Assembly (NCBI GenBank): GCA_016872775.1
Contig: VGZA01000026.1
Coordinates: forward strand, 11,821 to 75,820
Source of the DNA: Planctomycetota bacterium
GTDB lineage: Bacteria > Planctomycetota > Planctomycetia > Pirellulales > Pirellulaceae
Length of the DNA stretch: 64,000 bases
Direction: 5' to 3'
Position numbers and translations under genes: made by a program. The notes under the pieces are model-generated. The model ran no database searches. It was not told the DNA's origin and saw nothing but the letters and a program-made list of their open reading frames with translations. Positions 58,491-62,869 of this stretch are shown piece after piece (the stretch's first letter is position 1; each line of letters opens with the position of its first letter).

Positions 58491-58590
58491 GGAAGTGCCT
58501 GCACACCTGGTGGTGGCCACAGTCTTCAAAACTGCTGTGCCGTACGATAACCGTGCGGCAGGTGGGTTCGATTCCCATGCACTTCCGCCA
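58491..58590 (+). tRNA. selC: tRNA-Sec (selC), anticodon UCA, with CCA encoded.
   Basis: The 100-nt gene has an 8-bp acceptor stem (GGAAGTGC / GCACTTCC). The anticodon loop is CTTCAAA, identical to E. coli selC. A long extra arm (GCCGTACG-ATAAC-CGTGCGGC, 8 bp) is present. The T-arm is GTGGG-TTCGATT-CCCAT (5 bp), giving the 8/5 bacterial Sec structure. Discriminator G plus CCA at 58588..58590. One irregular position (bulged C) lies in the anticodon stem. Confidence 0.8.
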
Positions 58591-58642
58591 TTTAATTGCG
58601 GCAATTCGCGTAGACTCGTCGCGATGGGCGCAAGCCACGGAG

Positions 58643-58830
58643 TCATCTTGCGTTGGGTGGGCTGACTGCGATTCGCCGCCATTCCGCGTCCGGGGCCGCA
58701 GCGATGATCTTGCTTGTTTCATCCCGTGTCACGAAGTATTGCCGCGCAGCATTCCCTGCCGGCGCGGAAACCAGCTTGGCAAATGGGTTGACGGAAACTA
58801 TTTCGTGTTCCACGGCCCGCGCGAAAAGTC
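58643..58830 (-). pseudogene. Remnant of a tyrosine recombinase/phage-integrase gene (N-terminal core-binding segment only) abutting tRNA-Sec.
   Basis: The C-terminal part of track ORF 58643..58984 reads [53 protein letters not shown]. This fits the integrase pattern NP..k.p.....r.lT.eE...l..A....w. The catalytic domain, which would lie toward and over the tRNA, is absent. Confidence 0.4.
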
Positions 58831-59260
58831 CGCGTCTTGAACGAACTGGGGCTGGGATGTCTGAAGCTGGGACATCCATCGACGATTCTCTCCGGGGGCG
58901 AAGCGCAACGGGTGAAGCTGGCCGGGGAACTGGGCAAAATGACGCGTGGCAAGCACAACCTGTATTTGCTGGACGAACCGACAACGGGCTTGCATTTTGC
59001 CGACATTGACCGGCTGCTGATCAGTCTGAATCGGGTGGTGGACCACGGTCATTCCGTGGTGGTGATTGAACACAATCTGGACGTGGTCAAGACCGCCGAT
59101 TATGTGTTCGACCTGGGGACGGAGGGCGGGCATAACCGGGGGCTGCCTGATTGCCTGCGGCCCGCCGGAGGCGGTCGCTGCTTGCCCGGTATCCCATGCC
59201 GGACGGTTCCTTACGGACTACCTGGACCGCCAGTTTGCCCGATCGTCAGGCAACCCATAA
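58791..59260 (+). pseudogene. uvrA: UvrA C-terminal fragment (last ~150 aa of excinuclease ABC subunit A), frameshifted, with no upstream body.
   Basis: The frame after TGA 58788 reads [110 protein letters not shown]. This matches the UvrA signature II/Walker B/H-loop. The terminal [29 protein letters not shown] is in a different frame (track ORF 59066..59260). Confidence 0.6.
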
Positions 59261-59482
59261 TCCGAATCGTCGGCAAACGCCGTCGCTTCGTTGCCTCGCC
59301 GGGGCTCGGGTGACGATGCTAAGATACCGGACGGTTGTGCGGCCGGAGGCTCGATACATTCGTACAGGTAACGTCGACCGTTCGGGAATTTCCCCCGCCT
59401 GCAATCTGGGGTAAACTGCCAAGTCCAGGCCGGGGCAAATTCGCCAGCCTGGGCCCAGCTGGTCCTGCGGAGGTTTTCGTAA

Positions 59483-62400
59483 GTGGATCTAGACCGCTAT
59501 CTTGCGCCCTTTCGCCCGCCGCGAACCAATCTGGTCGACGCGCTACGGTACTGGTCCGAAGTTCAATCCGACGCGCCGGCCTTCTATTTCACCGATCTCG
59601 AAGGCGAAGAACTCCGCTGGACTTACCGCGAACTGGATCAAATGGCTCGGGCAATCGCCGCACGGCTGATCGATCAGAAGCTGCAAGGCGAACGGGCATT
59701 GATGCTCTTCCCTCCCGGTCTGGAGTTCGTCGCCGCCTTTTTCGGATGCCTGTATGCGGGTGTGATCGCCGTACCGGCCTATCCGCCTCGACGCAATCGG
59801 AACATGACGCGCATCCAGGCGATCGCCGACGACTGCCAAGCCAAGGTCGTATTGACGGTCCGGGCCGTCACCGAACGGATGAACGACGGCTTGTTGGAGG
59901 AAACGCCAGCCCTGAGCGATCTGCAATGGGTTGCCGTCGACGAAGTGTCCCTGGCTCGCGCTGACGATTGGCGACCCTCAAACATTCGCGGCCAACAATT
60001 GGCGCTGCTGCAGTACACCTCCGGTTCCACCGGAACGCCCAAGGGAGTGATGCTCACCCACGATAACGTGATGAGCAATGTGCTGGTGATCATGAGTTGC
60101 TTTGAACCGGATCGTAACACGGTCGGATTGGCCTGGCTGCCAACCTACCACGACATGGGGCTGGTGGGTGGCGTCCTGGAACCGATGTTCGTCGGCCGGC
60201 CCAACGTGTTGATGTCGCCGATGACCTTTCTGCAGAAACCGGTGCGTTGGTTGCGGGGGATCAGCAAGTATCGAGTCACGATGAGCGGCGGCCCCAATTT
60301 TGCTTACGACCTGTGCGTGCAGCGGGTATCCGACGAGGAAATGGCGGGGCTCGATTTGAGCTCGTGGGACCTGGCCTTCAACGGTGCGGAACCGATCCGC
60401 CCGGGAACCCTCGAACGATTCACGCGAAAGTTTGCGGAGGTGGGATTCCGCCCAGAGGCGTTTTTCCCGTGTTACGGCATGGCGGAAACAACATTGATCG
60501 TCACGGGCAGCCATAAGCGGGACCTGCCCGTGCTCTTGACTGTGGATGGGCGGGCGCTGGACGAGCATCGCGTCGTGCCGATCCGATCGAGTCATGAATC
60601 GGCTCGCATCATCGTTGGCTGCGGACACGTGCTTACGGGCGAAGACGTTCGGATCGTCGATCCGCAGTCGCTCGACCCGCTTCCCGACTATCAGGTCGGA
60701 GAGATCTGGATCAAGAGTCCCAGCGTCGCCCAAGGCTACTGGAACAAACCGGACATCAGCGAGGCGACGTTCGGGGCCGTGCTTTCGAACGGCACGGGGC
60801 CCTTTCTGCGCTCCGGTGACCTGGGATTCATTAAGGACGGGGAGTTGTTCGTCACCGGGCGACTGAAGGACCTGATCATCATTCGCGGCGTCAACCGTTA
60901 CCCGCAGGACATCGAATTGACGGTGGAACGATCGAGCGAAAGGTTGCAGTCGGGAGCGGTCGGAGCGTTTGCGGTCGACATGCACGGGCGGGAGCGACTG
61001 ATCGTGGTCGCGGAAGTGGAGCGATCGCGGCACAAGGCCTGGGACGACGTCATCCGGTTGATCCGCACCAATGTGGCGGCCGAACATGAACTGCCTCCCG
61101 ACGGAGTGGTGCTTGTCCGCTTCGGTTCGATTCCGAAAACGTCGAGCGGCAAGATACAGCGTCACGCCTGCCGCGACGATTTCATCTCCGGCCAGCTTTC
61201 GATCGTCTCCGAATGGTACGTTTGGGCGACCGAAGAGGACCGTGCGACCGTGTCCGAAACTTCGGCGGCGGCTGTGGCTTCGGCGAGCGACCCGGCGTTG
61301 ACGGCGGGTTTCGACCTCGCGACAACAGTCGCGATCGATCCGGTCGTGGCCGCGACGGTGCTCGACCATGTGCGGGCGGTCGCCAAGGAACGAGCGAAAA
61401 CACTGCATCTCGATTCCAACATCGTGCTCGACCTGGGGCTCGACTCGCTCGAGCGCGTGCAGATCGCCAACAGCCTGGAAGAGACATTTGGCGGGCGATT
61501 TCCGGAGTCGGTGCTGGCCGAAATCGAGACCTGCCGGGAAGTCGCTGCGGCGATCCAGAAGCATATCGGCTTGGTGCCCAAAAAAGACCGCAAGCTGGCC
61601 GGGCCCGGTTCCAACGGCCGGCCGATCGGAGAGGTCCCTCCGGAGTATTACGATTTCGCAAGATTGCCGGAATATGTGCGATTGAAACAAACCATGTTTC
61701 AAATGATGTCGAGTGGACTTCCGAACCCCTATTTTTCCGTGCACGAGCGGGTGGCCAGCGATACGACCCAGATCGCGGGCCGGGAACTTATCAGTTTTGC
61801 AACCTACAACTACCTGGGAATGTCTGGCGATCCGGAGATTTCCGAGGCGGCCAAGCGCGCGATCGATCGTTTCGGCACCAGCGTATCCGCCAGCCGGCTC
61901 GTGTCCGGGGAAAAAACGGTCCATGTCGAACTGGAGTCGGCGATCGCGGAGTTTCTGGGTGTCGAAGCGTCGATTGTCTACGTCGGCGGCCACGCCACCA
62001 ACGAAACCACGATCGGACATCTGTTTGGACCTGGCGACTTGATTCTGCACGATGCTCTGGCGCACAACAGCATCATCCAAGGCGCGATCCTTTCCGGTGC
62101 GCGGAGGCGTCCGTTTCCGCATAACGAATGGCGGGAACTCGACACGATCCTGAAAGAGGTTCGTACGGAATACCGCCGAGTGCTGGTCGCCATTGAAGGG
62201 GTTTACAGCATGGACGGCGACTACCCCGAACTTCCGGCATTCGTCGAGGTCAAGGAACGCCACAAGGCGTTGATCCTCGTCGACGAGGCCCATTCCCTGG
62301 GGACGATGGGGACGCGGGGCCATGGAATTGCCGAACATTTCGGGCTGGCGCCCCGGCGCGTCGACCTGTGGATGGGGACGATGAGTAAATCGCTGGGAAG

Positions 62401-62869
62401 CTGCGGCGGCTACATTGCGGGCCGACGCGAACTGATCGAACTGCTGAAATATACCGCTCCGGGCTTTGTCTACAGCGTCGGTATTCCGCCCAGCAACGCG
62501 GCGGCGGCCCTGGCGGCCTTGCGAGCGATCGAGGCCCAACCCGATCGCGTGGACAGATTGCAGGCCAATTCACGCCTGTTCCTGGAACTCGCCCAGGCGC
62601 GCGGTCTCAACACAGGATTCAGCGAAAACACCCCGGTGATTCCTGTGATCACGGGCAATTCACTACACGCGCTGATGCTCTCGAGGGCCCTCTACCAGCG
62701 CGGCATCAACGTCCAACCGATTCTGTATCCAGCCGTCGAAGAGGAGAAGGCCCGCCTGCGGTTCTTTATCACGTCGCGTCATACCGAGGCCCAGATCCGC
62801 GAAACGGTCGACGCCGTTGCGGAGGAACTGGCCCGGATCGACGAGCGGTACCTGACGCCGATGCGCTGA
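59483..62869 (+). CDS. Tridomain fatty-acyl-AMP ligase (FAAL) - acyl carrier protein - α-oxoamine synthase (class II PLP aminotransferase, BioF/KBL/SPT-like).
   Basis: The 1128-aa ORF has the FAAL core [25 protein letters not shown]...[20 protein letters not shown]. The ACP domain carries the phosphopantetheine site [15 protein letters not shown]. The AOS domain reads [17 protein letters not shown]...[15 protein letters not shown]...[16 protein letters not shown] with the PLP lysine. Confidence 0.85.

Follow-up and report, generated by a model that had tools for sequence, protein, structure and literature searches.

Remnants of a Putative Integrative Element between tRNA-Sec and a Predicted Tridomain Synthase Gene in a Planctomycete

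1. Introduction

Genomic islands of Enterobacteria that are associated with selC, the gene of the selenocysteine tRNA (tRNA-Sec), comprise LEE, SHI-2, SPI-3, and their relatives, and have been reviewed (PMC2704930, PMC7545054); degraded islands with truncated integrases are classic at this site (PMC2704930, PMC7545054). The locus described here lies in a 64,000-nucleotide (nt) stretch of DNA from a Planctomycetota bacterium of the family Pirellulaceae (assembly GCA_016872775.1, contig VGZA01000026.1, positions 11,821 to 75,820 of the forward strand), hereafter called the window. Like the enterobacterial selC islands, it has foreign DNA at the 3′ end of tRNA-Sec and a tyrosine integrase encoded beside the tRNA, and it is degraded. 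Unlike them, it belongs to the Planctomycetota, retains neither virulence nor other cargo and no direct repeats, and involves an integrase family with a core-binding domain of the SAM_5 type plus PF00589, whose open reading frame (ORF) ends inside the tRNA gene. Further likeness exists to other elements and prophages that target tRNA genes, such as P4-like elements and many integrative and conjugative elements (ICEs), which carry the tRNA 3′ end in attP next to int: the integrase and tRNA genes face each other, insertion leaves the tRNA whole, and occupancy of the site differs among related genomes. In contrast to P4-like elements and ICEs, however, only remnants are present in the window.

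Beside the integrase remnants lies the 3′ stump of a uvrA gene. Its product aligns with residues ~791–943 of canonical class I UvrA (Thermotoga and Geobacillus structures 3pih and 2r6f; 1e-55), including the second signature motif, Walker B, and the H-loop, whereas Walker A, both zinc modules, the UvrB-binding domain, and the whole first nucleotide-binding domain of the canonical protein are lacking. The next gene encodes a predicted synthase made up of a fatty acyl-AMP ligase (FAAL), an acyl carrier protein (ACP), and an alpha-oxoamine synthase (AOS). In bacterial sphingolipid synthesis, Spt, ACP, and the acyl-ACP synthetase are encoded by separate genes, and stand-alone alpha-oxoamine synthases include CqsA/LqsA and BioF; the chemistry, which is predicted to be shared, comprises three steps, namely, fatty acid activation, carriage on ACP, and condensation with an amino acid by a pyridoxal phosphate (PLP) enzyme. 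Unlike systems with separate Spt, ACP, and synthetase genes, the window fuses the three functions in a single protein of 1128 amino acids (aa), which is accompanied by a conserved 60-aa ORF.

An initial annotation of this DNA had described a decayed element at tRNA-Sec which delivered the synthase gene. The first part of that description agrees with the present analysis, the second does not. The favored reading, to which a probability of roughly 60% is assigned, is that a resident element, its integrase and uvrA genes still alive, lost its interior recently and in two separate events, one in the lineage of the window organism and one in that of a sister species.

2. The Integrase Remnants and Their Family

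Relatives were drawn from 80 Planctomycetota loci (L001–L080) fetched around rsmA homologues, with RsmA identities of 57–76%, and from further loci with higher numbers. Among the latter, L087, together with L093 and L155, represents the sister species (assembly ERZ27250187, contig k141_379905), and L092 is a contig 99.92% identical to the window; the assembly with MBM4004021.1 and MBM4004022.1 is of the window type. The features of the locus are compiled in Table 1.

Table 1: Features of the tRNA-Sec locus (positions refer to the window).
Feature	Position	Strand	Basis and remarks
rsmA/ksgA (16S rRNA dimethyladenosine transferase)	57467..58390	+	PF00398, 4.9e-49; native left flank
tRNA-Sec (anticodon TCA)	58491..58590	+	ARAGORN; Rfam RF01852; intact, predicted attachment site of the element
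Integrase remnant, piece 1, C-terminal tail (~residues 391–434)	58562..58685	-	blastn versus L001; overlaps the tRNA 3′ end
Integrase remnant, piece 2, residues 164–218	58670..58834	-	tblastn versus L017 integrase, 65% identity; phmmer
uvrA 3′ stump, last ~150 codons	58810..59260	+	TIGR00630, NF001503, PDB UvrA, tblastn
Conserved spacer before the synthase gene, 222 nt	59261..59482	+	81% identical to the sister species; no Rfam match
Predicted FAAL-ACP-AOS tridomain synthase, intact, 1128 aa	59483..62869	+	Pfam, NCBIfam, and PDB domain matches
60-aa ORF, no family match	63013..63195	+	tblastn matches 3′ of the synthase gene in relatives
Hairpin, 22-nt arms, 4-nt loop, 95% complementary	63255..63302		inverted-repeat search; flanked by A and T runs

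A tyrosine integrase fragment of ~60 aa on the minus strand beside tRNA-Sec had been noticed in the initial annotation, and its assignment is borne out. The minus-strand ORF at 58646–58837 encodes a peptide of 64 residues, for which no match was found in Pfam, NCBIfam, or PDB sequence searches and which matches the PHROGs collection only weakly (PHROG_1 integrase, E 0.015). When 1.8 billion representative proteins were searched exhaustively with this query by phmmer, 366 matches at E<=1e-3 were obtained, the best of them at 4e-16 and 65% identity. Typical matches are proteins of 400–450 aa that align near residues 165–220, and seven of the eight top matches scanned carry PF00589 and/or a SAM-like domain (PF13102), the eighth, P0143 (2346 aa), being without a Pfam match. 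The fragment is, hence, homologous to PF00589-bearing tyrosine recombinases; it spans a domain boundary, with the final part of the SAM-like core-binding domain and the very start of the catalytic domain.

The debris extends further than had been recognized, since its C-terminal tail piece had been missed. Window positions 58490–58685 are 87% identical to positions 10949–11145 of L001 (blastn), the nearest relative by rsmA among the collected genomes, which keeps integrase residues 332–430 only (L001 11021–11326); the 95 nt right after the window tRNA are homologous to this integrase tail. The antisense strand of the tRNA end reads MAEVHGNRTH in the window and likewise in L017 and L001. Between the two window pieces ~170 codons are missing. 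The PF00589 region is almost wholly gone, and the R-K-H-R-H/W-Y residues of a working tyrosine recombinase are all lost. The string GLRPSR just past the stop codon was considered as the GLR-SE catalytic motif of an integrase and rejected, the alignment with L001 DNA placing it in the C-terminal tail, which is read in another frame.

Intact members of the family are known from two short metagenome contigs. In L017 (CAZFLF010000204), rsmA is followed by tRNA-Sec and by a complete 434-aa integrase gene on the opposite strand, of which the final 41 nt lie inside the tRNA-Sec gene and the PF00589 region spans residues 198–359. The closest database integrase, P0121 on L172 (Ga0673078_0053062), overlaps the tRNA-Sec gene by 62 nt. 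Differently shortened integrase remnants are found at tRNA-Sec in L001 and in L087 of the sister species, while no integrase was detected at the tRNA-Sec sites of L049, L079, and L081; distant relatives (33–42% identity) are present on IMG/VR contigs. Because of the integrase-family matches and of the two intact members that overlap tRNA-Sec, the window is regarded as bearing the real scar of an integrative element targeting tRNA-Sec, much as had been proposed. Judged by these gene arrangements, the integrase family is specifically associated with tRNA-Sec.

The tRNA-Sec gene of the window scores 66.9 bits with the Rfam model versus a gathering score of 47 and begins 100 nt past rsmA; it is 99% identical to that of the sister species and 98% identical to that of L081. 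The order eno-ribE-rsmA is kept in most of the 80 related loci. The distribution of tRNA-Sec is patchy: it occurs within 10 kb in only 4 of the 80 rsmA loci (L001, L017, L049, and L079) and directly 3′ of rsmA only in the closest relatives of the window and in L017. In L079, a gene for a redoxin/AhpC-type protein lies immediately upstream of it.

With regard to the usual marks of a genomic island, an integrase remnant begins right at the end of the tRNA, and occupancy of the site varies: L081 has neither integrase nor uvrA debris, and such debris takes differing forms in L001, L087, and the window. A second, directly repeated copy of the tRNA 3′ end, as expected of a right attachment site (attR), was not found in 58400–64000. 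Searches with 24- and 16-nt tRNA-end patterns at <=3 mismatches gave nothing relevant, the best local alignment of the tRNA end was no better than that of shuffled sequences, and 59261–59482 contains no attR-like copy. The GC content is flat at 0.58–0.62 across 50–64 kb, and the GC content at third codon positions (GC3) of the uvrA stump, 0.725, equals that of its neighbors. That direct repeats and deviant composition are missing is attributed to the feature being a remnant. The palindrome AATTGCGGCAATT at 58594–58606, pointed out earlier as sitting at the tRNA 3′ end, is indeed present; it is, however, ascribed to chance, since the window contains 20 palindromes of this 6+1+6 type versus 15.6 expected, and it is not conserved in the relatives.

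3. The uvrA Stump

The description of the second fragment as the last ~150 aa of a UvrA on the plus strand, frameshifted and without an upstream body, proved accurate. The stump matches TIGR00630 at positions 813–912 (4e-42) and PDB UvrA chains at ~1e-55; its last 37 residues are in a second frame. A further match is to NF001503 at positions 906–942. It keeps the signature motif of the second ATP-binding cassette (ABC) nucleotide-binding domain, Walker B, the H-loop, and the C-terminal tail. A complete UvrA has two ABC nucleotide-binding domains and zinc modules in ~940 aa; the stump covers model positions 813–943 only and reaches 144 bits, far under the cutoff of 730 bits, and no further uvrA-like sequence was found in the window. 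Identity to a canonical planctomycete UvrA is 78% (tblastn), and that to the uvrA genes of other planctomycetes is 79–85%. The stump abuts integrase piece 2, the two similarities overlapping by ~25 nt.

The frame is broken by a single extra G at 59138 relative to L092. As the shifted allele occurs on at least 17 contigs from several sources, the frameshift is considered real in the population. Two lineages only, the window type and the sister type, carry the stump. At the corresponding position uvrA is absent from the outgroups L081, L085, and L002; it would, therefore, have arrived in the ancestor of the species pair, and it is treated as putative cargo because this arrival was where elements of the present integrase family insert. 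A scan of viral contigs with the uvrA stump as the query gave no relatives.

The idea of a general class of orphan UvrA C-terminal fragments, left by elements that insert at the uvrA 3′ end, was rejected, most of the candidates being canonical uvrA genes split by insertion sequence (IS) elements or frameshifts (L090, L173, L174, and L175); when a 153-aa UvrA query was run through the word-indexed protein search, nothing longer than 266 aa was listed and no full-length UvrA, so that the lack of long matches in it is not to be taken as biological. The sole true orphan fragment among those examined, at L091 10001–10645, is fused to an unrelated N-terminus and lies in an 8.7-Mb genome in mobile-looking surroundings that include a Rad52-like gene and an MmeI-type restriction-modification gene. 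On another planctomycete contig (L090 6594–12741), a canonical uvrA is broken by an insertion sequence of the ISAzo13 family. A tRNA-Leu gene follows right after it, and then the gene of a 571-aa integrase, accompanied by resolvase, AAA_25, and HTH_17 genes; this group is a separate integrative element, and the integrase near this uvrA belongs with the tRNA-Leu gene.

4. Junctions and Decay in the Two Lineages

The junctions between integrase and uvrA debris differ in the two lineages. In the window, the junction at 58810–58834 connects integrase residue 164 with UvrA residue ~791. In the sister species, integrase residues 311–325 (L087 9932–9975, 82% identical to L017 7332–7375) abut UvrA from ~9977, and the uvrA stump begins 35–45 codons later than that of the window. 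The scar at L087 9300–9975 contains, in addition, a fragment of an IS630-like transposase on the minus strand and a 60-aa ORF (9722–9904), which we take to resemble the final part of a nucleotidyltransferase or of a protein of the toxin-antitoxin type; these two and the integrase tail lie to the left of the junction.

Over the 106 codons shared with the sister species, the rate of nonsynonymous substitution (dN) in the uvrA stump is 0.099 and that of synonymous substitution (dS) is 0.865 (dN/dS 0.115), and dS equals that of the flanking genes. The differences fall on codon positions 1, 2, and 3 in the numbers 17, 5, and 40. As a reference for decay, the C-termini of 17 canonical planctomycete UvrA proteins were taken, in which 78 columns do not vary. 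At these columns, the window shows six clear violations (Y>C, L>V, I>F, P>T, G>R, and T>A) and the sister species 1 in 59, while under neutrality, by our own estimate, ~63% of the invariant columns would have changed since the split.

The integrase fragment gives a similar picture. It is stop-free over 64 codons and has one change at 14 columns conserved in the family; intact members average 3.6 changes over 43 columns. Nonsynonymous distances are 0.198 between the window and L017, 0.239 between the window and L172, and 0.177 between L017 and L172. The excess on the window branch amounts to 0.03–0.06 per site, or ~1/10 of the branch, which is of the same order as in the uvrA stump. Measured by these substitutions, both stumps are, unexpectedly, barely decayed.

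5. The Synthase Gene and Its Surroundings

That the FAAL-ACP-AOS gene is intact and encodes three domains, as initially annotated, is supported by matches to an AMP-binding domain at residues 24–420 (PF00501, 7.7e-72), a PP-binding domain at 625–691 (PF00550, 2e-10), and an Aminotran_1_2 domain at 768–1111 (PF00155, 3e-47). In the translation, the carrier domain shows its serine motif, LGLDSLE, and the AOS domain its PLP lysine motif, MSKSLG. Among PDB entries, FAAL structures (7r7e, 7e-183, FadD32) and AOS and serine palmitoyltransferase structures match best; for the last domain, the best PDB and NCBIfam matches are serine palmitoyltransferase, KBL, and BioF. By its domain content the protein is, thus, a predicted enzyme with adenylation, carrier, and alpha-oxoamine synthase domains. 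A literature search for fusions of FAAL and oxoamine synthase found no papers.

The gene is regarded as the native right flank of the attachment site and is not supported as cargo of the element. In L081, which holds the nearest synthase homologue outside the species pair (79% identity), eno, ribE, rsmA, and tRNA-Sec are followed by a 560-nt spacer, in which no similarity to integrase or uvrA was found, and by the synthase gene; the same backbone is conserved in the sister species. In L002, which is without tRNA-Sec, the synthase gene is found 3.8 kb after rsmA, and in L058 it lies on the other side of eno. It occurs in all relatives compared, without the presence-absence pattern of an island, and is always trailed by the conserved 60-aa ORF and a BBP7-like porin gene. 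L085 and L087 share a downstream block of the 60-aa ORF, the porin, an apurinic/apyrimidinic endonuclease, a pyrroloquinoline quinone protein, and a protein with a release factor 1 (RF-1) domain. More than 100 Pirellulales homologues of the synthase from metagenome assemblies have 64–79% identity, which mirrors the range of RsmA. Identity to the sister species is 96% for eno, 92% for rsmA, and 93% for the synthase gene, with dN/dS values of 0.036, 0.049, and 0.045, respectively. The synthase gene has a GC content of 0.61 and a GC3 of 0.74, compared with a GC3 of 0.74–0.76 in eno and rsmA. It is because of this conserved synteny, core-like dN/dS, and local composition, and because no copy of the tRNA 3′ end lies downstream, that the gene is considered native.

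The spacer before the synthase gene has essentially no indels relative to the sister species and is 81% identical to it, while synonymous sites are ~50% different; positions 59381–59427 are almost invariant. Since three other intergenic regions are only 53–76% identical, promoter and leader of the synthase gene are probably located in this spacer; as for the nature of the conserved signal, it may be a promoter, a leader, or a regulatory RNA. On the other side, the 60-aa ORF is found directly downstream of the synthase gene in every relative with available sequence there, among them L002, L058, L081–L083, L085–L089, L092–L094, and L144, with identities of 50–93% and a dN/dS of 0.07 versus the sister species. 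Its product probably functions together with the synthase.

A strong terminator had been placed after the synthase gene. The hairpin does exist, but it lies 390 nt further on, past the 60-aa ORF and between convergent genes. It is likely a two-way terminator, as predicted from its structure, although a simple terminator scan did not flag it. Rfam microRNA matches at 63248–63309 were rejected, being due to this terminator hairpin and scoring far below the gathering thresholds. The BBP7-like porin ORF beyond it (63319–63972, minus strand) has a weak Pfam match (22 bits) and contains a run of >=10 glycines; as the porin gene of the sister species is called at 401 aa, the true start of the window porin lies past the window end.

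6. Proposed History and Alternative Explanations

The resident gene order at the locus is eno, ribE, rsmA, tRNA-Sec, FAAL-ACP-AOS gene, 60-aa ORF, terminator, and BBP7-like porin gene. The tRNA-Sec 3′ end is taken as the attachment site for the tyrosine integrase family whose intact genes end inside the tRNA. In the common ancestor of the window organism and the sister species, an element would have resided between tRNA-Sec and the synthase gene, with the integrase gene at the tRNA end, reading toward the tRNA, and a presumably full-length uvrA-type gene at the opposite end, oriented toward the synthase gene. Purifying selection would have acted on both genes during most of the period after the species split. 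In the window lineage, a recent deletion would then have taken the 5′ parts of both genes and all between them, joining integrase residue ~164 to UvrA residue ~791; a later deletion would have removed integrase residues ~219–390, and the extra G would finally have broken the uvrA stump. The sister species would have undergone a deletion of its own in the element interior, by which integrase residue ~311 was joined to UvrA residue ~835. The window lineage would have lost the interior earlier than the sister, its stumps having begun to decay. The outcome would be ~670 nt of nonfunctional debris beside an untouched synthase gene.

Several observations weigh against this history. No intact element with both this integrase and uvrA was found, and the IMG/VR relatives L176–L178 are without uvrA within 10 kb. 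No attR marks the right boundary of the element. The two deletions end at most ~130 nt apart in a 2.9-kb uvrA gene; that both should end in the last 16% of it is a coincidence with a chance of ~3–5% if endpoints are uniform. The IS630-like and other debris in the sister scar suggests a longer decay than the pristine uvrA stump implies. The rate arguments, moreover, rest on one species pair, the stump being present in two lineages only.

The nearness of the right breakpoints would be accounted for if the integrase-uvrA junction predated the species split and the sister form arose from it by a later, nested deletion, the stump being a defunct partial duplicate of the uvrA gene of the genome, kept gene-like by repeated conversion from the functional copy elsewhere in the chromosome. 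In line with this, substitutions in the stump are of the coding type at the same dS as in the flanking genes, the sister stump is indistinguishable from a canonical UvrA C-terminus, and the stump is of the canonical type also in its identity to other planctomycete uvrA genes. The nested-deletion model was, however, dropped as the favorite because the neighboring integrase fragment is equally undecayed, which conversion from uvrA cannot account for; in addition, the six violations and the frameshift of the window copy imply that no conversion is acting there. It is now rated as rather improbable. The stump could, instead, be a domesticated small gene, which would begin with the ATG of MTRGKHN common to both lineages and encode 106–140 aa including Walker B and the H-loop. 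Such a gene would be under selection of its own and in the course of loss only in the window lineage. Its dN/dS, the unusually conserved spacer to the synthase gene, and the ORF being intact in L092 and in the sister species (identical protein P0351 on 7–10 contigs; five loci fetched, two of them from one contig) would fit such a gene. So would the Met in both lineages at a position where most canonical UvrA have Leu, although one canonical UvrA has Val-Thr there, which makes the Met less striking. A piece of an ABC ATPase that lacks Walker A and most of the core is, however, unlikely to fold alone; no upstream sequence common to both lineages is available for a shared promoter, the predominant window allele is frameshifted and carries radical changes at invariant positions, and the fresh integrase fragment points to a recent truncation. 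A small gene of this kind is accordingly held to be very doubtful. Taken in general terms, that is, as a stump upstream of the synthase gene since before the species split and either retained as a selected small protein (Walker B plus H-loop, 106–140 aa) or kept in step with the real uvrA by conversion, long-term retention is considered unlikely.

A layered scar would result if tRNA-Sec had been invaded repeatedly and a recent integrase fragment had been joined to older uvrA debris by a deletion that removed the far end of the newer element. The several unrelated fragments in the sister scar fit this, as does the sister integrase tail, which at the nucleotide level is 88% identical to L001/L017 versus 62% to the window, as expected if circulating elements were acquired independently. 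That the uvrA stump bears a signal of selection would, though, be left unexplained, and the similar, slight decay of both window fragments is more in keeping with a single event, so that this explanation is regarded as doubtful, too, only a shade less so than the domesticated gene. As to the delivery of the FAAL-ACP-AOS gene by the decayed element, which would imply an island running from the tRNA beyond the synthase gene, it is true that the gene is the first intact one past the debris, that it adjoins rsmA in closer relatives only, and that the synthase block of L085 has other upstream neighbors. Against this stand the debris-free L081, the synthase gene near rsmA in L002 and beside eno in L058, and the downstream block common to L085 and L087. 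An identity to the sister species close to that of rsmA, the low dN/dS, a composition like that of the neighbors, the lack of a downstream attR, and the many Pirellulales homologues likewise speak for a resident gene. Conserved synteny and missing attR thus weaken the delivery part of the initial annotation, which is deemed highly improbable, whereas its integrase part is upheld by the matches of the peptide to recombinases. As the simplest account, the recent and independent gutting of one resident element remains the preferred history.

7. Significance

In kind, the scar in the window is an ordinary feature, a degraded selC island, found here in another phylum and with a different integrase family. 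It marks tRNA-Sec as a hot spot of integration well outside the Enterobacteria and identifies the Planctomycetota integrase family that would be responsible. The conserved FAAL-ACP-AOS lipid or signal synthase of the Pirellulales is regarded as a core chromosomal gene, which corrects the attractive assumption that it was delivered by the adjacent element. Adjacent gene remnants that resemble long-dead junk can, furthermore, record the recent deletion of genes under selection. If the lost uvrA was the sole copy, nucleotide excision repair would have been lost independently in two sister lineages.

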